Source of the DNA: an uncultured Pseudomonadota bacterium
GTDB taxonomy: Bacteria; UBA10199; GCA-002796325; CAYWXY01
NCBI GenBank assembly: GCA_964462555.1
Contig: CAYWXY010000001.1
Span: 1,577 to 65,576, forward strand
Length of the DNA: 64,000 nt
Direction: 5' to 3'
Below, in pieces: positions 1,837 to 29,925 of this stretch. The notes under the pieces were generated by a model, which was not told where the DNA came from, searched no databases, and saw only the letters and a list, made by a program, of their open reading frames with translations. Positions within the stretch are counted from its first letter, which is position 1. Each line of letters opens with the position of its first letter. The position numbers and the translations under genes are program-made.

Positions 1837-3531
1837 ATGGGCGGTGAAAAACGCGGAATCTTTGCCATTGCACTCAGTTTACTGGTCTTTGTGGTCTGGT
1901 ATTCATTTATTCAACCTAAATTTTTCCCCGAGGACAAGAAAACCGAAACAGCAGCCGTTGAAGAGGTGGTAATAGCGGAAAAGCAAGTAGCCACGGCCGA
2001 GACGGCAGCGTTAGACCAAAAACCAACAGAGCCCACCGCAGCAGCGGGGGCGGTTTCCCAGAAGAACGTTGATGAAGTTTTCACAACGATCGAAACCCCA
2101 GAGATTAAGGTAACGTTTACAAATTATGGCGCCAGGCCGACCGAGTGGGTACTTAATCACTACACCACACGAAAAGGGAAAGACTCCAAGCCGATTAATC
2201 TAGTGACTCAGGACCCCACGCCGAAGCACCCATTAGAGCTAACATTTGTAAAAACGAATGTCGCCATTCCTAAAACGCTTCAGTATACCCTTGTTGAGGC
2301 GACGAACGAGCGTGTTCATTATCGTTGGACATCATCGGCACAGGTGATCGACAAGATCTATTCCGTGACCGATATTAAGTATGACCTCGGTCTGACAGTG
2401 ACAATTACCAATAAAGGAAAAGAGGCCTTAACTCAGCAAGTCTCTCTTGCCTGGACCGCAGGGAAGCCCGAAGAAAAAAAGGGTGGTTTCTTTAGCTTTT
2501 TAAAACGCCCATCCGATATTAAAATGCCGGTCTATGATTTCGATGGTGAGGTTGATAGAGAGACCTCCGTTGCCAAGCTTGGCAAGGAATCGGTCAAATG
2601 GGGAAGCCTTTTTTGGACCGGCATTGAAGACCGCTACTTTTTAGCCGCAATTGTTCCACAGGAGGTCGGCGGTTCATTAGGCCTTGAGATGGGAGTGTTT
2701 GGAGAGGCAGGGGCAAACGGTTTCTATTCCGGCCTCGTCCTTCCGGAGGGGATTATTCCCCCAGGTGGCGCGGAAAAATATAAGTTTTCAATCTTTGGTG
2801 GGCCAAAAGATATGCATGCGCTTCAGGCCGTTGGACGGGACCTTGACAAGGCGATCGATTATGGGTGGTTCACATTTATTGCCATCCCGATTCTCTACAC
2901 ACTCAAGTTTCTCTACAGTCTCGTTCATAATTATGGCATCGCCATTATCTTGCTGACAATCTTGATCAAAATTCTTCTCTATCCGATTTCAAAAAAATCG
3001 ATGAAATCAATGAAGGGAATGCAGCAATTGCAACCGCGTCTCAAAGAGCTCAAGGAAAAATATGCCAATGATAAAGAACGCCTCAATGTTGAAATGATGC
3101 AGCTCTTTAAAAACAACAAGGTTAATCCGATGAGCGGTTGTCTTCCGATGGTATTGCAGTTCCCGGTCTACATCGCGCTCTACCGTGTCCTCTGGAACTC
3201 CATTGAGCTTTATCAGGCACCCTTCTTCTGGTTTTATAGCGATCTTTCCCAGCCGGACCCTTACTACATTACGCCGGTTCTTCTGGGTCTTTTTATGGTT
3301 CTCCAACAGAAGTTGACACCAACCGCGACGGCTGATCCAGCCCAGCAAAAGATGATGATGCTCATGCCGGTCATGTTTGCCGTTTTTCTGGCCTTCTTGC
3401 CAGTGGGGCTGGTTATTTACATTCTCGTCAACACGGTCCTCACTGTTCTTCAGCAGTGGATGAACAACAATGATATCCGGTTCAGGGATCTGTTGCGGGG
3501 ACGATTTCCCAAAAAGGCCAATGCCCAATAG
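1837..3531 (+). CDS. yidC: Membrane protein insertase YidC (start likely ATG 1837, not 1783)
   Basis: N-terminal TM, large periplasmic domain, C-terminal 5-TM core with LLTILIKILLYPISKKSMKSMKGMQQLQP...NPMSGCLPMVLQFPVYIALYRVLWNSIEL; RBS AAAGGGG before 1837. Confidence 0.92.
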   Translation: MGGEKRGIFAIALSLLVFVVWYSFIQPKFFPEDKKTETAAVEEVVIAEKQVATAETAALDQKPTEPTAAAGAVSQKNVDEVFTTIETPEIKVTFTNYGARPTEWVLNHYTTRKGKDSKPINLVTQDPTPKHPLELTFVKTNVAIPKTLQYTLVEATNERVHYRWTSSAQVIDKIYSVTDIKYDLGLTVTITNKGKEALTQQVSLAWTAGKPEEKKGGFFSFLKRPSDIKMPVYDFDGEVDRETSVAKLGKESVKWGSLFWTGIEDRYFLAAIVPQEVGGSLGLEMGVFGEAGANGFYSGLVLPEGIIPPGGAEKYKFSIFGGPKDMHALQAVGRDLDKAIDYGWFTFIAIPILYTLKFLYSLVHNYGIAIILLTILIKILLYPISKKSMKSMKGMQQLQPRLKELKEKYANDKERLNVEMMQLFKNNKVNPMSGCLPMVLQFPVYIALYRVLWNSIELYQAPFFWFYSDLSQPDPYYITPVLLGLFMVLQQKLTPTATADPAQQKMMMLMPVMFAVFLAFLPVGLVIYILVNTVLTVLQQWMNNNDIRFRDLLRGRFPKKANAQ

Positions 3532-3581
3532 ATTAAGGGTTCCCTTTACATAGCACCCAAAATATATTATACGTCTTATTC

Positions 3582-6500
3582 ATGATATGGGGCTGTACAC
3601 CATACCGACCGCCGCCGGCCGACTATCCCGAGCTCCCGGATGTCTCACTCCATGACGTCATTCACGACACCCTCGTTATTAAAGACACGAAGGGTGGAGA
3701 CTCCCTCTTTGACTCCTTCTGGGATATTAAAGAAAAATACGATGCCGAGATTGATACGTTCAGAGAAGATGCGGATGGCTTTGTTGATGCCGAAACGAGC
3801 GATACGTCAGACACCTTTGATGCGTTTGATGGCGAAGAGATGTGTGAAGATCTCTGTTTTGATATTTCAGATAGTAACGATGGTGACGCAGAAGTTTGCG
3901 AGTTTGTTGGCGAGATTGACGATACCTGTGATGATATTGACGACGACTGTGACGGCGAAACCGATGAAGAATTTCCCATAGAATTGACCGAGTGTGGCGT
4001 TGGAGGTTGCCTTTCAACGGGCATCTTGGCCTGTGTCGGCGGCGACATTGTTGATACGTGCGTTGAAAAGCCGGCCGAGATTGACGACAGTTTTTGCGAT
4101 GGTATTGATGGCGACTGTGATGGATGGACCGACGAAGATTTTGAATCTGAAACCACGTCATGCGGTATCGGTGCCTGTTTTTCAGAGGGTTTAACACTAT
4201 GTATTGGAGGCGAGGTTCAGGATAGTTGTGAGCCCGCCCTCCCCGCACCAGACGATCCGGGCTGTGATGGCATTGATGATGACTGTGATGATCTGGTTGA
4301 CGAGGACTTTATTCCATATCCAACGTCCTGTGGGGCTGGGGCATGTGCCGCTGATGGTGAGGCGACGTGTGAGGGAGGTTTCATCATCGACAGTTGCGAG
4401 CCGCTAGCCACAGCACCAGACGATAGCGAATGTAACGGCATCGACGATGACTGTGACGGCGAAACAGACGAAGACTTTGTCTCAATGGTAACTGCTTGTG
4501 GTATCGGGGGTTGTGCCTCCGTTGGGCTAACGTTGTGTGTCGGGGGAAGTGTTCAAGACAGTTGCAAGCCAGGAAAGCCCGCGCCAGACGATGCGACATG
4601 CGACGCTATCGACGACGATTGCGACACAAAGATAGATGAAGACGTTCATCCGATTGAGACCGAGTGTGGCACGGGAGCTTGTTTGGGTTTAGGGCTGGCC
4701 ACATGTCTAGACGGAATAATGGTTGATAGCTGTGAAGAGGGAGTGCCGGCCCTGGACGATTCGGAATGCAACGGGATAGACGATGATTGTGACGGCGAAA
4801 CCGACGAAGAGTTTGTGTCTTCAGCCACCGAGTGTGGTCTTGGCGGCTGTGTTAGCACTGGAAGCACCAGTTGTATCAATGGAGAGGTTCAAAATAGTTG
4901 CACGCCAGAGATGCCAACCCCTGACGATGCCAAGTGTGACGGCGTCGATAGTGATTGTGATGAAGAGGTAGACGAAGACTTTATGCCATACGGTATTCAG
5001 TGTGGCGTTGGGGGCTGTATCGCGGACGGCCTGGCCATCTGTTTGAATGGTGAAATTTCGAATGAATGCACACCGGGAGCGGCGCTGGAAGATGATACGT
5101 CATGTGACGGAATCGACGGTGATTGCGATAGTGAGACCGATGAAGATTTTGTCTCAATGGCAACAATGTGTGGCACGGGTGGATGTTTGGCCGAGGGGAT
5201 CACACTCTGTATTGGTGGTGGCATTCAAGACAACTGTGTGCCCGGAGAGGCGGCGCCGAACGATGCGAGCTGTAATGGCGTCGACGATGATTGTGATGGC
5301 AAAACTGACGAAGATTATGTTCAGCAGATAACGAAATGCGGCGTTGGCGGCTGTTTTGAAGAGGGGGCGACCACCTGTTTGGGTGGCGTGATTTTGGACA
5401 GTTGTGTGGCGGGAACTCCTGCTCTGGATGATTCCGAATGCAATGGTATCGATGATGACTGCGATGGCGAAACCGACGAAGATTTTACCTCACAGGCAAC
5501 GGAATGTGGCACGGGGGCTTGTCTTAGCAGCGGAGAGACAAGCTGCATTAATGGTGTCGTACAAAATAGTTGTACCCCACTCTCCCCTGCCTTTGATGAT
5601 GCAACATGTGATGGTATCGATGATGACTGCGATAACGACCTTGACGAAGACTTTACTCCCTACAGCATTCAGTGTGGTATCGGAGGCTGTGTCGCGGACG
5701 GCCTGGCTATCTGTCTAAATGGTGAGATTTCGAATGAATGCACGCCGGGAGCGGCGTTGGAGGATGACACGTCATGTGACGGCATCGACGGTGATTGCGA
5801 CAGCGAGACCGATGAAGATTTTATCTCAATGGCAACAATTTGTGGCACGGGTGGATGTTTGGCCGAGGGCGTCACGCTCTGCATTGGTGGCGGCGTTCAA
5901 GACAACTGTGTGCCCGGAGAAGCTGCGCCGAACGATGCGAGCTGTAATGGCGTCGACGACGATTGTAGTGGCGAGACCGACGAAGATTTTATTTCAGAAA
6001 CAACAGAGTGTGGCACGGGTGCTTGCTGGGCCCAAGGCCTAACCATTTGTCTAAATGGTATGTTGATAGAAAATTGTGAGGAGCTTCTCCCGGCCATTTA
6101 TGATTCGGAGTGTAATGGTGTCGACGATGATTGCAATGGCGAGACCGACGAAGATTTTGTCTCACAGGCAACGGAATGTGGCACAGGAGCTTGTGTTGAT
6201 AGCGGAGAGACAAGCTGTGTTAACGGAGAAGTTCAAAATAACTGCGTTCCACTGCAACCCGCCCTAGATGATGCAACATGTAATGGTGTCGATGATGATT
6301 GCAATGGTGAGAGCGACGAAGACTTTATTCCCTATGGCATTCAGTGTGGCGTGGGGATCTGTCAGGCGAACGGTTTGGCTATTTGTCTAAATGGTGAAGT
6401 GGTTAATGAATGTACGCCTGGCCTCCCAGCACCAGACGACACATCGTGCGACGCGACAGATAACGATTGTGATGGCTTTAGTGATGAAGATTACATTCCC

Positions 6501-9500
6501 GAAACATCGTCATGTGGTGTGGGGGCATGTATCTCGGAAGGAACCATTTATTGTATTGGCGGAGCCTTTGTTGATAACTGTGAGCCCGGCCAACCCAGCG
6601 TCGAACTCTGCGACAATATCGACAATAATTGTAATAATGTTATCGATGATGATTGTATTGAAGGGGATTTCACCTGCGATGGCGTCGACGACGACGAAGA
6701 TGGCGAAACCGATGAAGAGTTTGAGCCCTACCCCACGTCATGTGGTATCGGGGAATGTTTTGCCGAGGGGCTTGCCACCTGCGTGAACGCCTCAATCATC
6801 GATAGTTGCGAGCCGGGAAGTCCGGCGCCGCTTGATACCATTTGCAACAATCTAGATGAAGATTGCGACAGTAATACCGATGAGGATGTTATTCCCGTTG
6901 AGACATATTGTGGAACGGGCGCTTGCGCCGCCGAGGGTCTTGCTATTTGTGTGGGCGGTGAAATGCAAGACAGCTGCACACCCGGGCAGGCGGCAGCGAC
7001 CGACACGTCATGTGACGGTGTGGATAATAATTGCAATGGCGAGACGGACGAAGGATTTATTTCGTATGCCACGTCATGTGGTCAAGGTGCCTGTTTGGCT
7101 GAAGGGCTCGCCACCTGTGTGAATGGCGATGTGGTGGATGATTGCACGCCTGGAAATCCCGCTCTTGATGATGCGACATGCAATAACGTTGATGACAACT
7201 GCAACGGATTTATAGATGAAGATTTTGTTCAATCAATAACGAATTGTGGTGTCGGTGCTTGTGAAAAGAGTGGGACAACATCGTGTATAGATGGCGACGT
7301 CATAGATAGTTGTGTTCCTGGGCAAGCGGCGCAAAATGACACCAGTTGCAACGCTGTCGACGATGACTGTGACGGTGAGGAAGACGAAGATTTTATTTCA
7401 CAGGCAACAGAATGTGGCACAGGCGCCTGCTCTTCCACGGGGCAGACAACGTGTGTGGCGGGCGAGATCGTTAATGATTGTGTTCCAGGTGACCCCGCAG
7501 CCAATGATGCGACATGTAATGGCGTCGACGATGACTGTAACAATGAAACGGACGAAGATTATCAAAATGCCGTCATCCAATGTGGCGTTGGCGCCTGTCT
7601 GGCCGACGGTCTGAAATTGTGTGTAAATGGCGAGCTGACAGACGAATGCACGCCCGGCCAGCCGGCACCCACTGATTCAACCTGTGACAATGTGGATAAT
7701 AATTGTAATGGCGAAACTGACGAGGGCTTCGTTTCTTATGCAACTTCTTGTGGTCAAGGCGCCTGTTTGGCTGAGGGGCTGGCCACGTGCGTCGGCGGCC
7801 AGGTCGTTGATAGTTGCACGCCTGGAAACCCCGCTCTTGACGATGCGACCTGTGATAACATCGATGATAATTGTAATGGGTTTGAAGACGAGGATTTTGC
7901 ATCAACCGTAACGAACTGTGGCGTTGGTGCCTGCGAGGCGAGCGGCACAACATCGTGTGTGGATGGAGATGTCATAGATAGTTGTGTTCCTGGGCAGGCG
8001 GCGCAAAACGACACTAGTTGCAACGGTGTCGACGATGACTGCAATGGTGAAACAGATGATGGTTTTGTGGCCCAGGTAACCGAGTGTGGCGTCGGGGCCT
8101 GTGCGGCAGAGGGCGCAACCGCCTGTGTTGACGGAGAGATAACAAATAACTGTACGCCTGGAGACCCGGCAGGAAGTGACGCCAATTGTGATGGTGTTGA
8201 TAATAATTGTAATAATGAAGTTGATGAAGATTATCAAAATGCCGTCATCCAATGTGGCGTTGGCGCCTGTCTGGCCGACGGTCTGAAATTGTGTGTAAAT
8301 GGCGAGCTGACAGACGAATGCACGCCCGGACAGCCGGCACCCACTGATTCAACCTGTGACAATGTGGATAATAATTGCAATGGCGAGGCTGACGAGGGGT
8401 TCGTTTCTTATGTAACCTCTTGTGGCCAGGGTGCTTGTCTGGCCGAGGGATTGGCAACGTGTTTGGCTGGAAACATTATCGATAGTTGTCTCCCGGGGGA
8501 GGCTGCCGCCAACGATTCGACGTGTGATAATGTTGACGACGATTGTGATGGTTTTAAAGATGAAGATTTTATCCAGGTGGTTACCAACTGTGGCGTGGGT
8601 CCCTGTGAAAAAGAGGGAATCACATCATGTGTCGACGGTGAGGTTATGGATAGTTGTCTTCCGGGAACGCCAGCACCGAGTGATGTTAATTGCGATAATA
8701 TTGACGACGATTGCAATGGCGAGGCCGACGATGGCTTTATCCCATATGATATAGAATGTGGCACGGGTGTCTGTTTTGCCGAAGGGCTTGCCCTTTGCGT
8801 TCAGGGCAGCATTGTTAACGATTGTGCCGAGGGTGAACCGACCGGAAACGACAGTGACTGCGATAATACAGATAATAATTGCAATGGATTTGTCGATGAA
8901 AATTTTGTTCCGTTTGGGACAGGGTGTGGTGTAGGTGCCTGTGCGGCCGAGGGTATGGCGACATGCGTGGGAGGAGAAATTCTTAACAGCTGTACACCAG
9001 GAGAAGCGGCCCCAAACGACACAACATGTGATGGTGTGGATGATGACTGCGACAGCGCGGTCGACGAAGATTATCAAAATGTCATTATTCAGTGTGGCGT
9101 CGGCGCCTGTGTTGAAGATGGATTAAAGCTATGCGTCGGTGGAGAATTTGTCGAGAATTGCGTGCCCGGAGACCCAGCTGAAAATGATACAACTTGTGAT
9201 GGTGTCGACGACGATTGTAATGGATTTAATGATGAAGACTTTAATCCGTATGGCACCAATTGTGGTGTTGGTGCTTGTTTCGCCGCAGGAACAATGACGT
9301 GTGTGGGCGGGCAACTTCAGAACGACTGTGAGCCGGGTGCTCCAGCGCTCACCGACGACGAATGTGATGGTATTGATAATAATTGTAACGGTACGACGGA
9401 TGAAGAATACGCACCAGAGATAACGGCCTGCGGCAGCGGAGCGTGTGCCGCTGAAGGAACAACGGAATGCATGGAAGGCGATATCATTGATAATTGCACA

Positions 9501-11387
9501 CCCGGGCTCGGAGCTGACGATGATCTAACCTGCGATGACGTCGACGACGATTGTAACGGTGAAACCGACGATGGCTACATTCCACAAAATACAGAGTGTG
9601 GTGTTGGCGCCTGTATGGCCGAAGGAATTACATCTTGCGTCGGTGGAACAGAGGTCGACGATTGCGCACCTGGAACGCCGGCCGAAAGCGATACCAATTG
9701 TGACGGCGTCGATGACGATTGTAATGGCGTGGCAGATGATGGATTTGTTTCGTATCCAACAAATTGTGGTCAAGGTGCCTGTTTTGCCGAAGGACTCGCG
9801 ACCTGTGTTGGCGGGGCTATCATCGATAGTTGTGAAGAGGGAACTCCGGCCCTTAACGATGTGACGTGCGATAATGTCGACGACGATTGCGATAATGAAA
9901 TCGACGAAGATTATATTGGCAACGCGATTCAATGTGGCGTCGGCGCCTGTATTGCAGACGGCATCACAGCCTGCGTTGGTGGGACAGAGCTCGACGACTG
10001 TACGCCGGGCCAACCCGCTGCAAGCGACACGACCTGTGATAATGTCGATGATGATTGTAACGGTGTGGCGGATGATGGTTTTGTTTCGTATTCGACAAAT
10101 TGTGGTCAAGGTGCCTGTTTTGCCGAAGGGCTTGCAACTTGTATAAATGGGATATTGAGCGACAGCTGCGAAGAAGGGATTCCGGCCCCGAACGATGTGA
10201 CATGCGATAATGACGACGATGATTGCGATAATGAAATCGACGAAGATTATATTGGTAATGCGATTCAGTGTGGTGTCGGCGCTTGTCTAGCAGATGGAAT
10301 CACAACATGCGTCGGTGGGGCAGAGCTCGACGACTGTACGCCGGGTCAACCAGCGCCATCGGATGAAAGTTGTGACAACGTCGATGACGATTGTAATAAC
10401 CAGACCGACGATGGTTTTGTTCCCTACTCCACCGAGTGTGGTGTAGGCGCATGCGTAGCCGAGGGAGAAGCGACCTGTGTGGGCGGAGAAATTCAGAATA
10501 GCTGCATACCGGGAATGCCCGCAATTAATGACGAGACATGCAACAACATCGACGACGACTGTGACGGCGCGACCGATGAAGACTTCGCATCCTATGTTAC
10601 GAGTTGTGGCGTCGGCGCCTGTCAAGCTGAGGGCCTGGCCACATGTGTGGGTGGAGAAGTGATCGACAGTTGCACGCCAGGAGAGGCGGCGGCCAACGAT
10701 GTAACATGCGATAATGTTGACGATGACTGTAATGGCGAAACCGATGAAGACTACGTTCCAACTGGGATGAGTTGCGGTGTTGGATCATGTGTTGAAAGTG
10801 GTCTCATACAGTGTGTGGGCGGCGAATTAATTGAAGAATGTACGCCGGGAACGCCAACCGATGAAATTTGCGATGGACACGATAACGATTGTGATGGAAA
10901 TACCGACGAGATCTGCATTGACAATATTCAAACGGGCTCCCTTCTCCTTGTTGGCTACACGACGCCGGCGAAGACGGAGATCATCAATAAAGAGGTTTTT
11001 GCAACAATCATTACCGGAGAGGCCCCCCTTCCCGATTCCTTTACGGTGGCGATTGAACATTGTATCGAAGAAGTCTGCACGACGACCGACCCGGTCGCCC
11101 TGGCTAACGGTATTGAACTCTGTGATTTTTCAGTGGGGCTTGGAAATGAGGCGTGCGAAGAAAATCAACCGGCCCCCATCAAGGAGTCAAATATTCTAGA
11201 TCTGACACTTGCGCAACTGATTCCCGGAATGAATCTTTGGTCCCTCTCTCAAGATGAAACATTCCGCGGCAACGTCACAACGTTGTCATACGACCTCGGC
11301 GGTTATAATATTGGTCTCGAGATTCCGATCCCCAACGCAGATGCGGCCTCATGCTACTATCTCTTTAACACCTACGCCTGCGATTAA
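3582..11387 (+). CDS. Giant (2601 aa) acidic cysteine-rich tandem-repeat protein. About 50 copies of a 45-aa six-Cys module ending in an LDLa/TSP3-like Ca-binding loop CDGxDDDCDGxTDEDF. No N-terminal signal peptide. Unique 190-aa C-terminal domain. Likely Ca-binding surface/secreted adhesin-like protein
   Basis: Single uninterrupted ORF. Repeat pattern C-x4-C-x7-C-x8-C-x11-C-x6-C with motifs CG(T/V)G(A/G)C, CxPGxPAxxD and CDG(I/V)DDDCDGETDEDF. Alternating module subtypes (ATECGTGAC.. / IQCGVGGC..). Near-identical DNA blocks recur at 672-bp offsets. First in-frame start is ATG 3582, with a stop at 3534. Confidence 0.85.
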   Translation: MIWGCTPYRPPPADYPELPDVSLHDVIHDTLVIKDTKGGDSLFDSFWDIKEKYDAEIDTFREDADGFVDAETSDTSDTFDAFDGEEMCEDLCFDISDSNDGDAEVCEFVGEIDDTCDDIDDDCDGETDEEFPIELTECGVGGCLSTGILACVGGDIVDTCVEKPAEIDDSFCDGIDGDCDGWTDEDFESETTSCGIGACFSEGLTLCIGGEVQDSCEPALPAPDDPGCDGIDDDCDDLVDEDFIPYPTSCGAGACAADGEATCEGGFIIDSCEPLATAPDDSECNGIDDDCDGETDEDFVSMVTACGIGGCASVGLTLCVGGSVQDSCKPGKPAPDDATCDAIDDDCDTKIDEDVHPIETECGTGACLGLGLATCLDGIMVDSCEEGVPALDDSECNGIDDDCDGETDEEFVSSATECGLGGCVSTGSTSCINGEVQNSCTPEMPTPDDAKCDGVDSDCDEEVDEDFMPYGIQCGVGGCIADGLAICLNGEISNECTPGAALEDDTSCDGIDGDCDSETDEDFVSMATMCGTGGCLAEGITLCIGGGIQDNCVPGEAAPNDASCNGVDDDCDGKTDEDYVQQITKCGVGGCFEEGATTCLGGVILDSCVAGTPALDDSECNGIDDDCDGETDEDFTSQATECGTGACLSSGETSCINGVVQNSCTPLSPAFDDATCDGIDDDCDNDLDEDFTPYSIQCGIGGCVADGLAICLNGEISNECTPGAALEDDTSCDGIDGDCDSETDEDFISMATICGTGGCLAEGVTLCIGGGVQDNCVPGEAAPNDASCNGVDDDCSGETDEDFISETTECGTGACWAQGLTICLNGMLIENCEELLPAIYDSECNGVDDDCNGETDEDFVSQATECGTGACVDSGETSCVNGEVQNNCVPLQPALDDATCNGVDDDCNGESDEDFIPYGIQCGVGICQANGLAICLNGEVVNECTPGLPAPDDTSCDATDNDCDGFSDEDYIPETSSCGVGACISEGTIYCIGGAFVDNCEPGQPSVELCDNIDNNCNNVIDDDCIEGDFTCDGVDDDEDGETDEEFEPYPTSCGIGECFAEGLATCVNASIIDSCEPGSPAPLDTICNNLDEDCDSNTDEDVIPVETYCGTGACAAEGLAICVGGEMQDSCTPGQAAATDTSCDGVDNNCNGETDEGFISYATSCGQGACLAEGLATCVNGDVVDDCTPGNPALDDATCNNVDDNCNGFIDEDFVQSITNCGVGACEKSGTTSCIDGDVIDSCVPGQAAQNDTSCNAVDDDCDGEEDEDFISQATECGTGACSSTGQTTCVAGEIVNDCVPGDPAANDATCNGVDDDCNNETDEDYQNAVIQCGVGACLADGLKLCVNGELTDECTPGQPAPTDSTCDNVDNNCNGETDEGFVSYATSCGQGACLAEGLATCVGGQVVDSCTPGNPALDDATCDNIDDNCNGFEDEDFASTVTNCGVGACEASGTTSCVDGDVIDSCVPGQAAQNDTSCNGVDDDCNGETDDGFVAQVTECGVGACAAEGATACVDGEITNNCTPGDPAGSDANCDGVDNNCNNEVDEDYQNAVIQCGVGACLADGLKLCVNGELTDECTPGQPAPTDSTCDNVDNNCNGEADEGFVSYVTSCGQGACLAEGLATCLAGNIIDSCLPGEAAANDSTCDNVDDDCDGFKDEDFIQVVTNCGVGPCEKEGITSCVDGEVMDSCLPGTPAPSDVNCDNIDDDCNGEADDGFIPYDIECGTGVCFAEGLALCVQGSIVNDCAEGEPTGNDSDCDNTDNNCNGFVDENFVPFGTGCGVGACAAEGMATCVGGEILNSCTPGEAAPNDTTCDGVDDDCDSAVDEDYQNVIIQCGVGACVEDGLKLCVGGEFVENCVPGDPAENDTTCDGVDDDCNGFNDEDFNPYGTNCGVGACFAAGTMTCVGGQLQNDCEPGAPALTDDECDGIDNNCNGTTDEEYAPEITACGSGACAAEGTTECMEGDIIDNCTPGLGADDDLTCDDVDDDCNGETDDGYIPQNTECGVGACMAEGITSCVGGTEVDDCAPGTPAESDTNCDGVDDDCNGVADDGFVSYPTNCGQGACFAEGLATCVGGAIIDSCEEGTPALNDVTCDNVDDDCDNEIDEDYIGNAIQCGVGACIADGITACVGGTELDDCTPGQPAASDTTCDNVDDDCNGVADDGFVSYSTNCGQGACFAEGLATCINGILSDSCEEGIPAPNDVTCDNDDDDCDNEIDEDYIGNAIQCGVGACLADGITTCVGGAELDDCTPGQPAPSDESCDNVDDDCNNQTDDGFVPYSTECGVGACVAEGEATCVGGEIQNSCIPGMPAINDETCNNIDDDCDGATDEDFASYVTSCGVGACQAEGLATCVGGEVIDSCTPGEAAANDVTCDNVDDDCNGETDEDYVPTGMSCGVGSCVESGLIQCVGGELIEECTPGTPTDEICDGHDNDCDGNTDEICIDNIQTGSLLLVGYTTPAKTEIINKEVFATIITGEAPLPDSFTVAIEHCIEEVCTTTDPVALANGIELCDFSVGLGNEACEENQPAPIKESNILDLTLAQLIPGMNLWSLSQDETFRGNVTTLSYDLGGYNIGLEIPIPNADAASCYYLFNTYACD

Positions 11388-12871
11388 TCGTTACTGACGA
11401 GACCCTGAATGAAATAGGGATTAAACGTTTGATCGATCGATGAAAACTCTTGCCAGATCAGCGCAAAGCCATTCTCCTGCGATACAAACGAATCTCCAGC
11501 GACGGTTCCCTGAATAAGTAGGGACTCGTTGGAAGAGAGCGCCCTTCCCGACTGATCGATTTTTGTCAGGTAGGTATTATGAAAGGTGATGCCGGTGTAG
11601 CCCGAAGCGACAGCGTAGGCACTATAGGTTGTAAAATGGGTATCGTTCCAGGTAATCACGGCGCCATCACGATTGGTCGCAATTTCTTTTCTTTCGACAA
11701 GAGCGGCACCAGCGGGACTATATCTTGCAAAGTATAAAGAGCCGATATTAGAATCATCACGTACAACCCAGGTAACGCCCATAGAGGCGCCATCCCAAAC
11801 GAGACTCGGAGTGGTGGAATAGACAGAAGTGTCGGAAATGAGGAGGGCAGAGGTGTCGGAGGAGATATCGGGCTTAAGGTAGATATTCATGAGGTCGCCG
11901 TCTCCAACTTCATTCCAGGTTGCGGCGTAGCTGGAAGACGTCGTGATCAAGATAAGGCGATGTGATCGTGATTCACTGTTGGATATATTCTTTGCGGCGG
12001 TCTTTTCGCTACCGTCGGCGTTGAGAGTCATAAAGTAGATATCGGACCACCAATTGGAACCGCTGTAGCCACACCACGCAAGACCATATTCATCATCTCC
12101 TGAAACAATGGAAATGCAGTCAGTGTTGGTGTGGACAGAGGGTATTTGACGCGCGGGAACGGTCACCGTTCCACTGGCGTCCATTCGCGTAAAATAGATA
12201 ATATCATTGTCGTCCTCTTCCAGACCGTAAACAATTGCGAAATCGGTGCCGTTCCAAGCAATGTCATTAATTGAAATAGTGGGTGTCCCCGATACGAATG
12301 GCATCAATTCGGAATGACTGTTTGTCGACGGATCGAGCGTTACAAAGTTATTATGTGCTACGAGGCCATAGATCGTTCCGCTATAAGCCAAGGCAAAAGG
12401 ATTCGTTTCAACATTTGCGGCAAGCGAGGTCATGTCGATTTTGGATCGAACAACAAATGAAGATGTGTCTGGGTCCGTTGGGTCCAGATATGTGACGCGA
12501 GCTGTTGTCTCAACTTCGGAACCGTCCACCGATAGCGAAGTGGTCAAAATTTTATCATCGTCATCGACAGTTCCGTTGAATACGATTTCTGTGCCATCAG
12601 AAAGGGTTGGGGATATCGAAAAGGCGCTGTCCGTGATTAAAACAGAAACGGTGGCACTTCCTGACACGGTCCCATCGATACTCGATTTGGAAAATGTGCC
12701 ACTTCCGTTGGCATCGGTTTCAAGGCTGTAGTTCGTTAGGGCCGCAGTTGTTAATGTTAGTTCCATATTGCCGAGCGGTTCAGGGTTTCCAGTCTCTGTT
12801 CCCTTTCCTGGCGTGCAGGCGTAGAGAGACACCAATACAAAAAAAAGAAGAACTTTTAAACATTGCCTCAT
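11384..12871 (-). CDS. Putative lipoprotein (495 aa) with Thr/Ser-rich N-terminal region and repeated W-x-G/aromatic blocks (beta-propeller-like); function unknown
   Basis: Signal peptide MRQCLKVLLFFVLVSLYAC with Cys lipobox-like site; recurring motifs IAWNGTDF, LAWCGYSG, ATWNEVGDGD, VTWVVRDD, ITWNDTHF, LIWQEF; 4-bp ATGA overlap with upstream gene. Confidence 0.6.
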   Translation of the reverse strand: MRQCLKVLLFFVLVSLYACTPGKGTETGNPEPLGNMELTLTTAALTNYSLETDANGSGTFSKSSIDGTVSGSATVSVLITDSAFSISPTLSDGTEIVFNGTVDDDDKILTTSLSVDGSEVETTARVTYLDPTDPDTSSFVVRSKIDMTSLAANVETNPFALAYSGTIYGLVAHNNFVTLDPSTNSHSELMPFVSGTPTISINDIAWNGTDFAIVYGLEEDDNDIIYFTRMDASGTVTVPARQIPSVHTNTDCISIVSGDDEYGLAWCGYSGSNWWSDIYFMTLNADGSEKTAAKNISNSESRSHRLILITTSSSYAATWNEVGDGDLMNIYLKPDISSDTSALLISDTSVYSTTPSLVWDGASMGVTWVVRDDSNIGSLYFARYSPAGAALVERKEIATNRDGAVITWNDTHFTTYSAYAVASGYTGITFHNTYLTKIDQSGRALSSNESLLIQGTVAGDSFVSQENGFALIWQEFSSIDQTFNPYFIQGLVSND

Positions 12872-13734
12872 GAATTGTCCTCACTCTTTGTTAATTTGAT
12901 AAAGCCGAGATTGATATTAACCACCTCGGTCTTGTTGTTGTTCCCCTCCTCCAGCTGCCGATGCAGTTTTCGACGAAACTCCTGAAGGGCGTCCTTCAGT
13001 TCGGCCATCTTCTCTGTTGAGATGGCCATTGTGATTGCAGAAAACTCGCGGTCGTCGACCGGATCCATTTTGACGGCTTCTTTGGATAGTTCCATCAGCT
13101 GTTCGTGAAATTCGGTGATCGAAAGGCTGCGGACCACATTTGGGGTCGCGAGCATCTCATCCGTTTTTTTAAGTCGACCAGCCTCATCGCGAGAGATCAG
13201 GCCGAGCCCTTCAAGTTCCTTCATGGCATGTTTGGCCTTTGGGACAGAAATAGGCGGCTTTAGCTTGTTTGCGATCCAATGATAATCCTCACGAAAATTA
13301 TCCAAACGCACAACCTCCATCAGTGCCAAATAGTACCAATTCGAATAAATCTTATAGTACTTTGACTGAAGCGTCGCCGGACTCTTCTTTGGTGTAAAGT
13401 CGACAAGTTGTTGGTAGTAGAGATTTTTTTCATCGTATGTGCCGGCTTGGCAAAAATTGACGAGCGCATGAAAAAAACGCGATTCTTTTTTGGAAAGACG
13501 AAAGCCTTTGCAGATCTTTTCGGCACTATCTGACGTCAGATTTCGCTTGCCGTCCATGATGAGTTTAAGATGGGCAGGCGATTTCATTCCGGCACGCCGA
13601 TTGAAGTTTCGATATGAGAATGTGGGGAGTGTCTCCTTGAGGAAGGAGATTCGATCCTTGAGGAATTCGCGATAGTCAACGAACTGATAAATCTCCTTGA
13701 TCTTGATTTCGTCATTGTTTATTGAATCGTCCAT
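12868..13734 (-). CDS. TIGR02147-like family protein (uncharacterized; N-terminal HTH-like region), translationally coupled to the downstream lipoprotein
   Basis: N-terminal YQFVDYREFLKDRISFLKETLPTFSYRNFNRRAGMKSPAHLKLIMDGKRNLTSDSAEKICKGFRLSKKESRFFHALVNF resembles the DYRxFLxD...FSYRxFAxKAG..SP..L..VI.GKRNL signature recalled for the TIGR02147 family (from memory, not searched). Confidence 0.55.
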   Translation of the reverse strand: MDDSINNDEIKIKEIYQFVDYREFLKDRISFLKETLPTFSYRNFNRRAGMKSPAHLKLIMDGKRNLTSDSAEKICKGFRLSKKESRFFHALVNFCQAGTYDEKNLYYQQLVDFTPKKSPATLQSKYYKIYSNWYYLALMEVVRLDNFREDYHWIANKLKPPISVPKAKHAMKELEGLGLISRDEAGRLKKTDEMLATPNVVRSLSITEFHEQLMELSKEAVKMDPVDDREFSAITMAISTEKMAELKDALQEFRRKLHRQLEEGNNNKTEVVNINLGFIKLTKSEDNS

Positions 13735-13867
13735 CTAAAAACTCCGAAATTTTAGGAAGCACAGGTAAACAACCAACAACACTTATATTGTATAACATAT
13801 TGATATAATTGTCATAATAAATATCGCCAAAAGAGAAAGACATAATATAGTCTATAAATACAATGCC

Positions 13868-14785
13868 TTAGTAAACATGCAGAATGCAGCTCGAGTCCTC
13901 TGCGTTGATACCAATAATGTACACCTCTTCGTCTATTGTCTGGATCGTGCTGTTGAGAGAAAGGTCGTCAAAATGGCACGATTCATAAGATCCAGCGCTT
14001 GCTGGAAGAACCTCTAGCGTAGATACGAAATCGGGGCAGATCAAGGATGTAACCTCAACAATATTGGACAGGCACTCCAAAATTTCTTTTGCGTGAAGTG
14101 CTTCTAATTCATCATCTGATAAATCTTCTGTGTCTTCTATTAATATATGTGGCTTATTAGGTGGTTGGGAAGAATTGTTAATATCGATATTAGGCAGTGA
14201 ATTTAAAAAACCTGGAATTGGATAACTTGGGAGGGGGACTTCTGCATTATTTTCACCCTCAAGAACCACGTCAGGATTGAGACTCTTTATGATGCAATCA
14301 ACTGAATCAAAATGATATGCTACCTCTGAATCTTCAAGCAGGAGGATGTCCCCTGTATTGCTATTGCAGTAATAGGCCTCACCCTTTTCATCTAAGACAC
14401 CAGCGATATTTTCTATAACGTCCTGCAAATGATCAAAGTCGTTCGCAGTCCAGCCTGTTGATGCCTGGCCACAAGCAAACAAAAAATTATAAAGAACTAA
14501 TGTTTCACATTGTGAATCATCAGCGTCTTCATCGCCATCATTCGCACTTTCTCCGCTTTCCCCATCACCATCATCGTCATCACGATCATCCCCCTTGTCG
14601 CCGTCATCATCAAGTTCGGTATCACCTGGGATCTCGACGGCATCATTCTCCCCATCGTCATCGAAGAAGGAGGCAAAATCGTTGGGCCGAACAGTTCCAT
14701 TATCTCCACATCCGGATAGAATAAGTAGCGCCGGCAGGAGAAGAATTGCGGCAAGAACGACAATTTGCTGAAGAAATTTTCTCAT
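13868..14785 (-). CDS. Acidic lipoprotein with poly-Asp/Glu low-complexity region (function unknown)
   Basis: MRKFLQQIVVLAAILLLPALLILSGC lipobox; DDDGENDAVEIPGDTELDDDGDKGDDRDDDDGDGESGESANDGDEDADD tract. Confidence 0.6.
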   Translation of the reverse strand: MRKFLQQIVVLAAILLLPALLILSGCGDNGTVRPNDFASFFDDDGENDAVEIPGDTELDDDGDKGDDRDDDDGDGESGESANDGDEDADDSQCETLVLYNFLFACGQASTGWTANDFDHLQDVIENIAGVLDEKGEAYYCNSNTGDILLLEDSEVAYHFDSVDCIIKSLNPDVVLEGENNAEVPLPSYPIPGFLNSLPNIDINNSSQPPNKPHILIEDTEDLSDDELEALHAKEILECLSNIVEVTSLICPDFVSTLEVLPASAGSYESCHFDDLSLNSTIQTIDEEVYIIGINAEDSSCILHVY

Positions 14786-15003
14786 ACGAACCTCCATATG
14801 GCTTGATTACTTTGTTTACAGAATTTACAAAAGAGCATTTAAAATACAGTGTATTTTATATAAGCAATTTATATGCCAAGATGCGGCCAATAATTAGCTA
14901 ATAATAACGAGCAGGTAGGGTTTGTGGGCTTTTAAGGATGGGGGGTGGTGACCTCGCAGCTGTATACTCAAAACCCCAAAAAACGAGTAAAATGTGAGCG
15001 GGC

Positions 15004-16731
15004 TTACCTAAACTCGGCCTTATAAATATGATTAGTGGAACCATCCGACTGTTGCCAGACAATGACCGTCTCACCATGATCATTGATAGCAATCTGGGGA
15101 TAGTAGGCATCATGATTGTCGGGGCTGATATTGTCGAGAAGATCTTCCGGAACAAATAAAACACCCTCTCGAAATTCGCCCTTAAAGACCTGAGAGTTGG
15201 TATCATCAGACTGTGTCCATACAACAACCGTGTCGCCGTCGACATTCATTGCCACCTGCATACCCTGAGAGGTTCCGTCCTCACGACCGTAATAGCTGAC
15301 CGGTTGCCAGTTGCCATCGCTATTTGCATATAGACCAACACGATAGGCGGCTCCGTCATGCTGCTGACAGACAATGACAGCCCCTCCATCATCATTCATA
15401 GCAATCTGTGCATACCGCGCTGTCAACCCCTCCGTGCTGAGGGCGTCTGAGGTGTCTGTAGGATGTACCCATACCCCCTCACGATACTCGCTCTTCAAAA
15501 TACGAGGAGTAAACGCGTCATCCGATTGATGCCATGCGATAATCGCATCGCCGTTTTCATTCATTGCAACTGCAGGATTGTTGGCGCTAAGACCCTCTGG
15601 GCTGATGTAGTCTGAGCTGTCCGAAGGATGTGTCCAAGCTCCCTCGCGGTATTCGCTCTTGAATATGCGAGATTTACCCTCGGCAAGTTGTGACCAGACA
15701 ATGATGGTTGCCCCGTCATTATCGATCGCAACTTGAGGGTGTGTGGCATTCAAGCTCCCGGGGTCAATATAGTCTGAGCTGCCCGAGGGATGCGTCCATA
15801 CCCCGCCACGATACTCGCTCATATAAATACGGAGATAGTCCCCCCTGTACTGGAACCAGGCAATAACGGTTTCGCCATTGTTGTTCATGGCTACCTGGGG
15901 AAGATAAACGTCATTGTCATCGGGACTTATATTATCTGAGAGGTTCGTCGGATGTGTCCAGGTTCCATCACGATATTCGCTCTTAAAGGTTTGGAGGCTT
16001 TCTCCATCGCTTTGTTTCCAAACGATAATAGCCTCCCCTTGATCATTCATAGCAACCTGTGGTCTCTGGGCATTTTCACCGTCTGGACTGATGTTGTCTG
16101 TGAGGTTCGTCGGATGCGTCCAGGCTCCATCACGATATTCGCTCTTGTAGATCTGGGAGGCATTGCCGTCCGATCGTGACCAGACAATAATGACGTTGCC
16201 GCTATTATCAATGGCAACTTGAGGGGCGAGTTCGTCTCCCCCTCCACCCTCTGGGTCGATGTGATCATTTTCTAGGCTCGTTGGGTGTGTCCAACGGTTT
16301 GAGCAAACGATATCGATGCTACGAACATCATCGCCATTGATTGTTCCGCTTCCGTTTGCGATAGTGCAGTTTTGTAAAAGGGGCTCTGTATCTAAGGTAA
16401 TAGAATAATTGCTGCCATCTTCAAAGGTTTCTTCGAACTGAAAATCACCATTGGCAGACAGGGCAAGATTCTCGCTGTTATTGATCTTAAGAACCAGCTC
16501 TTCGCTTGCAAGCCCTGTTAGCGAACCGCCAACATAATAGTAAGTGGCATCCGTCGTCGTCTCAGACGCTCCCCCCTCCTCCTCGGCTGGTGTCTCAGTC
16601 TCGGTCGGAGCATTTGTTTCGACACTTTCCTTTTCGGCGGGCTGGCTTGAATCTGTTGGAAGCCCACCGCAGGCCGAGAGGGTTGATAGGAAAAAAATAA
16701 TAAATAGAGCATCGAAGCGAAAAAGTTTCAT
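15004..16731 (-). CDS. Lipoprotein with about 9-10 tandem 47-aa repeats (WTHPTNLSDNISPDG...PQVAMN..GEAIIVWxQSDG..xIYKSEYRDG); probable beta-propeller; function unknown
   Basis: MKLFRFDALFIIFFLSTLSACGG lipobox; highly regular internal repeats visible in translation. Confidence 0.65.
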   Translation of the reverse strand: MKLFRFDALFIIFFLSTLSACGGLPTDSSQPAEKESVETNAPTETETPAEEEGGASETTTDATYYYVGGSLTGLASEELVLKINNSENLALSANGDFQFEETFEDGSNYSITLDTEPLLQNCTIANGSGTINGDDVRSIDIVCSNRWTHPTSLENDHIDPEGGGGDELAPQVAIDNSGNVIIVWSRSDGNASQIYKSEYRDGAWTHPTNLTDNISPDGENAQRPQVAMNDQGEAIIVWKQSDGESLQTFKSEYRDGTWTHPTNLSDNISPDDNDVYLPQVAMNNNGETVIAWFQYRGDYLRIYMSEYRGGVWTHPSGSSDYIDPGSLNATHPQVAIDNDGATIIVWSQLAEGKSRIFKSEYREGAWTHPSDSSDYISPEGLSANNPAVAMNENGDAIIAWHQSDDAFTPRILKSEYREGVWVHPTDTSDALSTEGLTARYAQIAMNDDGGAVIVCQQHDGAAYRVGLYANSDGNWQPVSYYGREDGTSQGMQVAMNVDGDTVVVWTQSDDTNSQVFKGEFREGVLFVPEDLLDNISPDNHDAYYPQIAINDHGETVIVWQQSDGSTNHIYKAEFR

Positions 16732-16833
16732 AATACCTCCTTGTGAACGATGATGTATTATCGCAAAAAAGGGAGGTGTATGTTGTGTGCTATTTAGTGG
16801 TTTGCGAAGAATCCGTATACTCGGAGTAAACAG

Positions 16834-17862
16834 TTAGAATAAATCTTTTTGGGTGGAAATGGCGCTTTTGGGAGCGCCGCCTTCATTTTCGGCCTCGGTT
16901 CGAGCAAGATAGACCATAGCGGCACCGATCGCGGAATCGAACCAGTCGTCACTCGCATTATTGTAAGCAACGGTAAGCGTAATCATGTCGCCACTTCCAA
17001 CGGCGACGCCGGCCGGATCTTGAAAGGGTGGAAGTGATGTAATCCGATGATCATCATCGATCAATGCTGTCCCCTTCCAAAAGGGGTCACCCTCATCACC
17101 CTTAGTAAGAGAAACCGAAACGCCATAATTTTGTAGAAGCCCATGGGCCTGAATCACAGAACCTGTCTCCGGTGAATAGGCAACCTCTACCTTTTCAACA
17201 AATTGTCCCGGTGCGATATTAATCGGCTCGTGATAACAAGGGTCGAGATCGATCATCATTGGCAAAACATCGGTCATCATCTTTGTATTGTCCATCGGTT
17301 CGCCAACGAGAATGACCTTGATATAGACACCAAAAAAATCCTGCTTCAACGGGTTCTGAAGAACAACGCGGGCCTCGAGCGGATCGCTGGGAACGACGGC
17401 ATAACCATGTCCCTCGGGAAGTTCAATCTTTTCCATATTGGAACTGGTGGCCGCAAAGGGATTTCCGGTTTGGCTGGTTGTACAAAAACTATTTTCCTCA
17501 CCGTGATTCACGAGAAGGATTTGATGAACAAGCTCGTTTGGGAGAGCAGCACCTTCAGCATCTTCAATGATCGGTTCAATCGATGTTACCCAGAGAGGTT
17601 CCTCCAGGTTGAAGCGCATCGTTGCCGGTTTCAAAATCATGGCGTTGGCAGACGTCATTGACGAAATATCATAAGGCCCCATATGGTACGTATAGACAAC
17701 CTTTCCGGTCTCATCGAGATAGTCGGAGATCGAGAGTTCTGCCTTTGACGGTTCGGCCTTCAGCTGCATGCTGGGGCCGCCTGGAACGTCGTTACAGGCG
17801 GAAAGGAGTGCCACCAAAGATATTGTTGCAAATGTGATAAGCTTTCGCATAAGTTTGGCCAT
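16834..17862 (-). CDS. Hypothetical lipoprotein (true start likely MAKLMRKLITFATISLVALLSAC at 17862)
   Basis: LSAC lipobox after hydrophobic stretch; the listed ORF's N-terminal extension lacks features. Confidence 0.55.
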   Translation of the reverse strand: MAKLMRKLITFATISLVALLSACNDVPGGPSMQLKAEPSKAELSISDYLDETGKVVYTYHMGPYDISSMTSANAMILKPATMRFNLEEPLWVTSIEPIIEDAEGAALPNELVHQILLVNHGEENSFCTTSQTGNPFAATSSNMEKIELPEGHGYAVVPSDPLEARVVLQNPLKQDFFGVYIKVILVGEPMDNTKMMTDVLPMMIDLDPCYHEPINIAPGQFVEKVEVAYSPETGSVIQAHGLLQNYGVSVSLTKGDEGDPFWKGTALIDDDHRITSLPPFQDPAGVAVGSGDMITLTVAYNNASDDWFDSAIGAAMVYLARTEAENEGGAPKSAISTQKDLF

Positions 17863-17901
17863 GTTAACACGAGGCTTTTTTAGCGGTGAATACGCGCCGC
17901 G

Positions 17902-26549: not shown

Positions 26550-27854
26550 GTGGGCATGACTAAGTTATCAACTTGGGCGCGGACCAATCTAGTCAAAGTG
26601 GGCGATTTTTTGCCAATCAATCTTGGTCTCGGTAAAGTATGTCCAGCAGTAGATGTGGTTGCTTCCGGGCAAGAAATTGATTCCGGGATCAATATTCTAG
26701 GCGGACAGGCCAATATTGTTGAGGGGATTATTCTTCCTCAGATTCCTGAAGATGAAGCCGCTGGTTTTCTGGAGGCAATCTCCGCATTTGAAGATGCGGC
26801 CTTCGATTACTTTGTCGATATCGATCCGACCAATCCTCTCAAGCCAATCGATATCGGTTGGCAAAATCGTCATCGCATCCAACAAGTTTTAAGTCGTCCT
26901 GGTTTTCAGGCTGCACTCGGTATTTGCGGTTCTTGTTTGGCAACTGCGGTCACGGGACATCTTGTTCCGTATGAAATTGGCGCGCGCATCTTTTCGACCG
27001 CCATGGTTGCGATTCCGCCAACCGATGCACCTAAAGAGGGACTCCTTCGTTACATGGCGGTCTCTCCCGATCTTCGTACTCACTTTACGAATCTAATGAT
27101 TCGTCTTGAACAGGCAATGCGGCGACTTGATCGATTGACACCGGACGATCTTTCATGGTTTGTAATGAAACAACTCGCAAGCCCGGAATTGATGCCATTT
27201 CTCAAGCTGGCCTTTATCGATCTAAAAGATTTGCTCTTCGAACATGATACGCTAACCATCCTTCTCTATAATACCATTCAGAATATTCTCTTTGGTGGCG
27301 ACCGAGACGTTTCAATCTACCGCGTCCACTTCAATATGACGACAATCAATGAGATGGATTCAACGAATCATCACGGGAATGTCTACCTTCGTGTTATTCA
27401 GGCCTGGTTTCAGGAAAAATTTGGAACCATTCACGTGGTTAGGAATCCAGAGCGGACATCATTTGAATTTATTGCACGTCCAGCGCGCCACGTTCGCCAG
27501 GTCATGAACTCTTTTGAAATTGAGGTTCAGCATCGGATCGCAACAGCCACGGGAGTTGATCCTGCGATTGTTGCCGAATTTATTCCGCGTGCAGTTCTCT
27601 CACGGCGAACGTTGACACGCCGAAATCTCTACCGCTACGGTGTTCGGAGCAGTGCTGACATTGTGATGTTTAGAGAGGTCTTGGAGTTTAGTGGCAGGGT
27701 CGATGTTGACGCGCTTGCGGAACTTCCTGAAGAACAACAGCTTCGTGCGGTCCATCGGGTGCGACCTGACATCGATGGTATCGTGAAGACGGGGGACAAG
27801 CGCCTCATTAAGACGCTCTACGCCGTGATGATCAAGGGAATTTCTACGCCGTGA
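26550..27854 (+). pseudogene. N-terminal fragment (434 aa) of a large hypothetical protein, interrupted by a triplicated 26-bp tandem repeat; would fuse in-frame with 27877-29505 if the repeat were single-copy
   Basis: ORF ends ...TLYAVMIKGISTP*; the next ORF begins (M)MIKGITELNAEL; removing 52 bp (two repeat units) restores ...TLYAVMIKGITELNAEL... Confidence 0.6.
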
Positions 27855-27895
27855 TGATCAAGGGAATTTCTACGCCGTGATGATCAAGGGAATTA
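27818..27895 (+). repeat. Three tandem copies of a 26-bp unit CTACGCCGTGATGATCAAGGGAATTT (third copy ends A instead of T) at the junction of two ORFs
   Basis: Directly visible: 27818-27843, 27844-27869, 27870-27895. Confidence 0.9.
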
Positions 27896-29505: not shown

Positions 29506-29601
29506 TTTCATTATATTTCTGGCATAGGCAGAATTCGTCAGGCACTCCTTGAAGTGTCCGTTAGGTCATGATATAGAGGCGCAAATAGTGCGGGGGGTAC
29601 T

Positions 29602-29925
29602 ATGTCCGAAAATATTGTCGCAAAGATTCGAAAAGCCGAAGAAGATGCCCAGTCTTTTGTGGACCTGGCAAAGCGTGAATCAAGCGCCGGGATTGCCCAG
29701 GCCAAAAAAGATCTCGAGGCGGCTCATCAGAAGTCTGAAGCAGAATCCCGAGAACATCTCAAAAAGTTTCGAAAATCTAAGGCAGAAAAATACAGAGCCG
29801 AAACAAAACGATTAAGAGATGAAGGTAAGAAGGCAGAGACTGCCTATGCCCAGAATCTGGAAGCGCGCTTTGGTGAGATTAAGGCAAAAATCGAAGAGAT
29901 GATCAGGAAAGAGCTATGTCTATAG
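29602..29925 (+). CDS. V/A-type ATPase peripheral-stalk subunit G/H-like (small coiled-coil protein)
   Basis: 107 aa, Lys/Glu/Ala-rich heptad-like sequence; first gene of the V-type operon. Confidence 0.55.
   Translation: MSENIVAKIRKAEEDAQSFVDLAKRESSAGIAQAKKDLEAAHQKSEAESREHLKKFRKSKAEKYRAETKRLRDEGKKAETAYAQNLEARFGEIKAKIEEMIRKELCL

Follow-up and report, generated by a model that had tools for sequence, protein, structure and literature searches.

Old higher-order repeats and short high-identity patches in a giant acidic 41-module repeat gene of an uncultured bacterium

How old are the stretches of similar DNA that recur at fixed offsets within a giant bacterial gene, and by what process did they arise? 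This question is raised by an open reading frame (ORF) at 3582-11387 on the plus strand of a 64,000-nucleotide stretch of contig CAYWXY010000001.1 from an uncultured Pseudomonadota bacterium, the whole of which is referred to as the window; the features of the gene described below all lie on this strand. The ORF encodes a protein of 2601 amino acids (aa; 265 kDa) that matched the Pfam family PF11617 with an E-value of 1.1e-48 (163.6 bits vs a gathering threshold of 27 bits), and its reading frame was intact across all 2601 codons. The original prediction had pointed to three pairs of near-identical blocks in this gene, all of which were present at the coordinates and offsets that it gave, and had ascribed them to very recent unequal crossover and expansion, with a hotspot for length variation and a risk of assembly collapse as likely consequences. 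The history that we consider probable is one of old higher-order duplications, short-patch conversion, and module loss in an acidic repeat gene of 41 modules.

Module anatomy and higher-order repeats

The base unit of the gene was found to be 168 bp (56 aa), in frame and present as 41 modules: the direct-repeat families lay at multiples of 168 bp, and the spacing of the MopE-type motif was exactly 56 aa. Modules 1-16, 168 bp each, constitute array 1 (3915-6602), and modules 17-41, also of 168 bp each, constitute array 2 (6663-10862), the two being separated by a 60-bp spacer (6603-6662), recognized from the motif spacing, that carries the lone MopE-type motif CDNIDNNCNNVIDDDC. Six cysteines were kept in every module, and the cysteine-bracketed pattern D9-x-[DN]11-x-[DN]13-G14-x-x-D17 was observed throughout the array, with D9, D/N11, and D17 present in 41/41 modules, D/N13 in 40/41, and G14 in 28/41.

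Self-identity across the gene peaked at offsets of 672 bp (0.56), 336 bp (0.54), and 168 bp (0.53), in this order of height. Given the base unit of 168 bp, the 672-bp offset corresponds to four modules and the 336-bp offset to two, and the original label of "5-module" for the former was thus mistaken, as the 56-aa motif interval also indicates. A five-module unit was rejected on arithmetic grounds as well, since dividing 672 by 5 gives no whole number, let alone a multiple of 3, and autocorrelation showed peaks at multiples of 168 only.

Neighboring modules were the least alike (56.8% at the DNA level and 50.6% at the protein level), and modules four apart the most alike (64.2% and 61.2%, respectively), so that identity between units exceeded that between neighboring monomers, the relation that characterizes a higher-order repeat. 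All module pairs with more than 75% DNA identity were separated by four or two modules, and the third-codon-position identity of in-register module pairs was 0.376 ± 0.07; considering this baseline and the restriction of the most similar pairs to these two distances, the periodicity of the block pairs is far beyond chance. When the modules were sorted into types by clustering their protein sequences, array 1 read.A.A.BCA.BCA.BC. and array 2 read.DEFGHEFGHEF..H...EIEI.D. as strings of types. Three higher-order repeats were thereby delineated. Higher-order repeat 1 (modules 6-15, 4755-6434, BCA.BCA.BC) and higher-order repeat 2 (modules 19-28, 6999-8678, EFGHEFGHEF) each comprise 2.5 units of a four-module period (672 bp), and higher-order repeat 3 (modules 34-39, 9519-10526) has a two-module period (336 bp), with EIEI corresponding to modules 35-38. 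Tandem Repeats Finder placed an array with a 336-bp period, at 80% matches, in the interval 9597-10397.

Age of the high-identity tracts

The three block pairs proved to differ considerably in their similarity. The segment 4990-5290 was 90.4% identical to its copy at +672, the two sharing no exact run longer than 35 bp, and 7554-7730 was 97.2% identical to its copy at +672, with an exact run of 104 bp that bears out the perfect identity over more than 100 bp originally noticed there; 9720-9960, at 83.4% identity to its copy at +336 and with exact runs of up to 35 bp, cannot be called near-identical. A scan for tracts of at least 87% identity in 60-bp windows returned, at offset 672, the segments 5008-5318 (90%), 5442-5526, 7268-7378, and 7531-7756 (93%), and, at offset 336, the two adjoining segments 9708-9808 and 9840-10015 (88% to the copy at +336); the same scan found none at other offsets. 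The copy of 5008-5318, a tract that crosses the borders between modules 7, 8, and 9, lies at 5680-5990, and that of 7531-7756 at 8203-8428. Within the latter tract, a core of 153 bp (7554-7706) differed from its copy by a single mismatch, with exact runs of 104 bp and 47 bp. With lengths of about 100-310 bp, the tracts thus did not reach a full period, and they crossed module borders.

Synonymous divergence, estimated by the Nei-Gojobori method, revealed that most of this similarity is not recent. The rates of nonsynonymous (dN) and synonymous (dS) substitution were 0.04 and 0.42 for tract 5008-5318, 0.035 and 0.26 for tract 7531-7756, and 0.065 and 0.79 for tract 9708-10015; in the core 7554-7706, dN was 0 and dS 0.06. 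In the flanks of the tracts dN was 0.19-0.57 and dS undefined through saturation. The dN/dS ratio of about 0.1 in the tracts indicates that purifying selection accounts for much of their similarity and that the tracts appear younger than they are. The higher-order blocks are therefore old, and the tracts within them are of differing age and mostly not recent; only the 153-bp core is young, and it is the youngest of the presumed conversion patches. Even this core was the same in three assemblies that differ mutually by ~0.05%, and it is therefore older than their split. High DNA identity alone thus does not date a duplication in a coding repeat array: synonymous sites here mark a patch of ~150 bp alone as young and two of the three "near-identical" tracts as old.

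The tracts were also sharply bounded. Third-codon-position identity was 0.8-0.96 in the tracts vs 0.25-0.4 in the adjoining flanks, the latter being the level of unrelated module pairs. In higher-order repeat 2, the longest run of identical third positions was 34 vs a maximum of 24 in 20,000 shuffles, and a scan test for heterogeneity that used only codons for the same amino acid yielded P values of 0.0007 in repeat 2 and 0.03 in repeat 1. Short-tract gene conversion between modules of the same type, the mechanism that we infer, best accounts for sharp patches of less than one period.

Repeat number and rival explanations

A comparison of repeat number with related metagenome contigs, which the original prediction had proposed, revealed that the count differs. 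The giant protein is identical in sequence to the database protein P0121, the 90% cluster of which contains two further members of 2657 aa each, encoded on contigs L081 (ERZ23499064) and L082 (ERZ23499040) from two other samples with the same gene order. L081 differed from the window by 6 substitutions over ~13.4 kb (~99.95% identity) and by one extra 168-bp module, and L082 differed from L081 at one position; both have 42 modules, and the window has 41. The window lacks the additional module at a 28-bp microhomology, ACCGACGATGGCTACATTCCACAAAATA (9564-9591), which was found in both neighboring modules of the long allele. The two ancestral modules at this junction are only 74% identical to each other, and a recent duplication can therefore not have turned a 41-module form into the 42-module one; the window rather appears to carry a 168-bp deletion, with its module 34 being a putative hybrid of the two ancestral modules. 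Slippage or recombination at short direct repeats 168 bp apart is a familiar deletion route. The predicted hotspot for length variation thus holds in spirit, although the change lies at 9564-9591, outside the flagged tracts, and amounts to 168 bp rather than 672 or 336 bp. When modules 33-36 were used as a query for more alleles of this junction, the only matches were relatives with 39-59% identity.

The history that would accommodate these observations has three layers. Ancient single-module duplications, now at ~57% DNA identity and with saturated synonymous sites, would have built the array; old duplications would then have given the 672-bp periodicity, in four-module blocks (modules 6-15 and 19-28), and the 336-bp periodicity, in a two-module block (modules 34-39); and later non-reciprocal conversion of short patches between same-type modules one period apart would have produced tracts of 100-310 bp at 88-97% identity, which purifying selection keeps more alike than their age implies. 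The length of the array would shift when recombination or replication slippage, at short microhomologies shared by neighbors, removes entire modules, the window representing one 168-bp deletion relative to the 42-module allele. So read, one gene of an uncultured bacterium illustrates old higher-order duplication, short-patch conversion, and microhomology-mediated module loss together, and the 41/42-module polymorphism offers a concrete instance that can be checked with reads. Some points weigh against this reading. The heterogeneity test was not significant for higher-order repeat 3 (P=0.25), which may equally well have arisen by a uniform duplication of moderate age; donor and acceptor could not be assigned for any patch, because no moderately diverged ortholog was found; and an assembly error could underlie the count of 41 modules.

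The very recent unequal crossover originally envisaged, by which whole 672- or 336-bp units would have been added to an actively expanding array, would account for identity being highest at exactly one period, for the 104-bp exact repeat, and for the different repeat numbers of near-identical assemblies. After a fresh duplication, however, near-identity should extend evenly over one full period or more, which was not seen, and this proposal is thus unsupported: the tracts fall short of one period and cross module borders between saturated flanks, by which it is largely refuted, and dS, 0.26 in one tract, reaches 0.42 and 0.79 in the two others. The indel that was seen is moreover the loss of one 168-bp module, the extra module of the long allele being only 74% identical to its neighbor, and the three assemblies were identical over all flagged tracts. 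We accordingly regard recent crossover as improbable. Less probable still is that no conversion took place and that the patches are exceptionally constrained segments, at the protein or nucleotide level, of a single old duplication. The dN/dS ratio in the tracts and the non-significant test for repeat 3 are in agreement with such constraint, but third positions were 93-96% identical in the core region 7545-7712 vs 25-39% in its flanks, which is beyond protein-level constraint, and other module pairs showed no conservation at the same module positions.

As a repetitive gene recovered from metagenome assemblies, it has 41 or 42 modules depending on the assembly, and an exact repeat of 28 bp contains the junction; the patch mosaic, the 41-module count, or both might therefore have been created by a short-read assembler switching between modules. 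Exact repeats of at least 30 bp in the gene numbered only five (104, 47, 35, 35, and 35 bp), which makes collapse at the flagged tracts unlikely, and the longest is below typical read length. The flagged tracts were identical base for base in the three assemblies, of which two derive from different samples, and the risk of assembly collapse that had been anticipated is thus low there. The 41/42 difference itself stems from a genuine deletion or from an assembler jump at the junction; the 28-bp repeat is shorter than the final k-mer sizes usual in assemblers, and the frame remained open over the whole gene. We consider an artefact no more credible than recent crossover, and retain old duplication followed by short-patch conversion and module loss as the preferred history. 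In these respects the gene follows ordinary repeat-gene evolution and is a further case of a familiar type of repeat-protein gene.

Several minor observations concern the compared contigs. Three of the six differences between the window and L081/L082 (positions 6063, 6071, and 6099) fall within 37 bp at the border of modules 13 and 14, and all three are nonsynonymous (L828M, E830D, and Y840D); a paralogous donor module for this cluster was looked for and none was found. The contigs L081 and L082 (13,566 and 13,570 bp), equivalent to window positions 2620-16017, share nearly the same ends, one within yidC and the other within an ORF of 575 aa, which suggests common assembly break points, possibly through strain variation or repeats at these sites. 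Exact look-ups of YidC and the giant protein in a contig index gave no match, though P0121 is present in the protein collection.

The encoded protein, its relatives, and its genomic surroundings

The giant protein contains 601 Asp+Glu residues vs 23 Lys+Arg, together with 261 cysteines (10% Cys), and the 2296 residues of its 41 modules (3915-10862) include 0 Arg, 13 Lys, 1 His, and 2 Trp. The coding strand of the module region showed a strong GC skew of 0.18-0.23, which we take to reflect the codon usage behind this acidic, basic-poor composition. Pfam recognized only the 30-aa MopE motif in the protein, and an NCBIfam scan gave no match; features of RTX proteins and type I secreted giant adhesins (GGxGxD nonapeptides and a C-terminal secretion signal) likewise gave no Pfam or NCBIfam match, whether with the whole protein or with its C terminus. 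Upstream of the modules lies an acidic non-repeat region of 111 aa (3582-3914), which starts with MIWGC and has no Pfam match. Downstream of them, a terminal lone MopE motif and a C-terminal non-repeat domain of ~155 aa occupy 10863-11384; for this domain no homolog in the protein collection and no Pfam family was found, and a search of metagenome contigs with it returned MopE-motif matches only and no orthologs.

A profile built from the 41 modules was searched against protein cluster representatives and matched 7876 of them at E<=1e-3 and 4017 at E<=1e-10, mostly end to end (positions 1-55) and in up to 63 copies per protein, which demonstrated that the 56-aa module is widely shared, in thousands of uncharacterized bacterial proteins. 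The best full-length relatives, of 2000-4500 aa and 40-50% identity, come from uncultured Myxococcota, Bradymonadia, and "Deltaproteobacteria", and are named "MopE-related protein", "Notch-like", or hypothetical in their sources. Since 47/60 of the top homologs had signal-peptide-like N termini and many had C-terminal tails resembling MYXO-CTERM, the family appears to be mostly secreted or surface-bound. AlphaFold2, run on three modules with the paralogous modules as the alignment, returned a locally confident model (pLDDT 92.4, with a pTM of 0.52) in which each module consists of an acidic loop followed by a three-stranded sheet. The loop fits the DxDxDG calcium-binding pattern, and together with the conserved cysteines these features are consistent with a calcium-stabilized, disulfide-locked extracellular fiber; the giant protein would probably be such a long fiber or stalk, and the family at large would probably form calcium-binding extracellular fibers. 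A copper-binding function was considered and rejected, since its ligands are absent from the modules. The family deserves attention as a very large one, with thousands of protein clusters that are often labeled "copper-binding MopE" and that have neither copper ligands nor a solved structure.

Against an extracellular, calcium-binding rod stand several results. The called ORF has no recognizable signal peptide, with neither an n-region nor an h-region, and no known sorting domain was found in it with Pfam and NCBIfam, so that a surface location of the giant protein rests on its relatives; nor did the family scans recognize an anchor or ligand domain. No PDB chain matched the module profile at E<=1, and comparison of the module model with solved structures found no similar fold. 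As to the N terminus, the MIWGC start lies 45 nt downstream of an in-frame stop. This start, in the segment 3534-3596, resembles a lipobox, and the 15 in-frame codons upstream of it, after the TAA stop, read GFPLHSTQNILYVLF, a hydrophobic sequence; a short lipoprotein signal could hence be hidden by a non-canonical ATA start or by a lost start. L081 showed zero substitutions relative to the window across 3534-3596.

Among repeat-bearing surface proteins, the nearest concept is that of the Periscope Proteins, which include SasG, Rib/alpha C, Sgo_0707, and CdrA (Whelan et al., 2021; PMC8201768), and in whose arrays adjacent repeats are highly identical and repeat number varies between close strains, a variation attributed to intragenic recombination (PMC8201768). 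The giant protein resembles them in its tandem small folded domains within a large bacterial protein and in an in-frame change of repeat number between close strains (41 vs 42 modules at ~99.95% flank identity, assembly error being possible). It differs in lacking the high identity of adjacent repeats that defines the class, as its adjacent modules share only the 56.8% DNA and 50.6% protein identity given above and high identity is found only in short patches, between modules separated by four or two positions; it also has no recognized wall anchor or distal ligand domain, and its length difference is one instance of a single module. The array thus obeys the usual rule of diverged neighboring domains.

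Its closest kin by sequence are the MopE-related or "putative metal-binding motif" proteins (PF11617) of Myxococcota, Bradymonadia, and other uncultured bacteria, which share the same 56-aa module, are in many cases 2000-6000 aa long with 10-60 copies, and have similar Cys and acidic contents. Unlike the giant protein, most of them have a signal peptide and a sorting tail; the N- and C-terminal regions of the giant protein have no homologs, and its self-periodicity is strongest at four modules, whereas that of most other relatives peaks at a single module. The relative P0012 (3171 aa) showed its strongest self-periodicity at 108 aa, above that at 54 aa, as a two-module higher-order repeat. Higher-order organization is therefore recurrent in the family and not general.

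The Pfam motif takes its name from MopE*/CorA, the copper-binding proteins of methanotrophs (PMC3423442; PMC3912023), in which the copper site is formed by two histidines and a tryptophan-derived kynurenine, and the solved structures of which contain a structural calcium site with acidic side-chain ligands (PMC3912023). The ligands of that copper site are absent from the modules (1 His and 2 Trp per 2296 residues), and these structures are not among matches to the module profile, which has none in the PDB. The acidic loop is also comparable, as a sequence pattern, to other calcium loops, having D-x-[DN]-x-[DN]-G plus a further acidic ligand. DxDxDG-type calcium loops, for example those of thrombospondin type 3 repeats, are reportedly the subject of work by Rigden and Galperin in 2004. 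The giant protein, however, has no match to Pfam TSP_3 (PF02412). An alignment of the teneurin cysteine-rich region with the MopE motif has been published (PMC3278476), but neither the teneurins nor the DxDxDG families have the three-stranded sheet with CGxGxC...G...C...C of the module. "Cysteine-rich repeats" described in a 2026 preprint (10.64898/2026.06.07.730663) have another cysteine spacing and were set aside as not relevant.

At the DNA level, the gene resembles the higher-order repeats of primate alpha-satellite in its multi-monomer unit, in units that are more alike than neighboring monomers, and in homogenization between units, and it resembles Helicobacter pylori cagY, a gene with in-frame repeat recombination (PMC2194252), in that its rearrangements keep the frame. 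It differs from such arrays in being coding and under purifying selection, in having 2.5 units per block, and in being mostly old (dS of at least 1 outside the patches). A broader proposal, which we put forward tentatively and think more likely to fail than to hold, is that the 56-aa module is a structurally undescribed calcium-stabilized, disulfide-locked rod unit, of which four alternating types would keep neighboring domains and their DNA dissimilar, thereby limiting misfolding and recombination yet allowing the occasional loss of a whole module, as a slow counterpart, in an uncultured lineage, of Periscope-type length tuning.

The giant gene is located after rnpA and yidC, and with five minus-strand ORFs of 495 aa, 288 aa (DUF4423), 309 aa, 575 aa, and 413 aa it makes up a block of ~14.4 kb (3532-17901) between yidC and mnmE, the latter starting at 17902. 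Since mnmE directly follows yidC in the three nearest relatives (L001, L002, and L005; YidC 40-68% identical), the block looks like a lineage-specific insertion near the rnpA-yidC-mnmE-mnmG cluster. At its stop codon, the giant gene runs 4 bp (11384-11387) into the 3' end of the ORF of 495 aa that converges on it (11384-12871, minus strand); this ORF has only a weak DUF7467 match, and the same overlap arrangement was observed in L081 and L082. The window contained neither a second MopE-repeat gene nor tRNA genes. At 29916-31871, a 651-aa ORF matched V-type ATPase subunit I (PF01496, E=2.3e-22), and the ORFs beside it at 26550-29505 had no Pfam match; the region 26550-31871 could represent a V/A-type ATPase operon.

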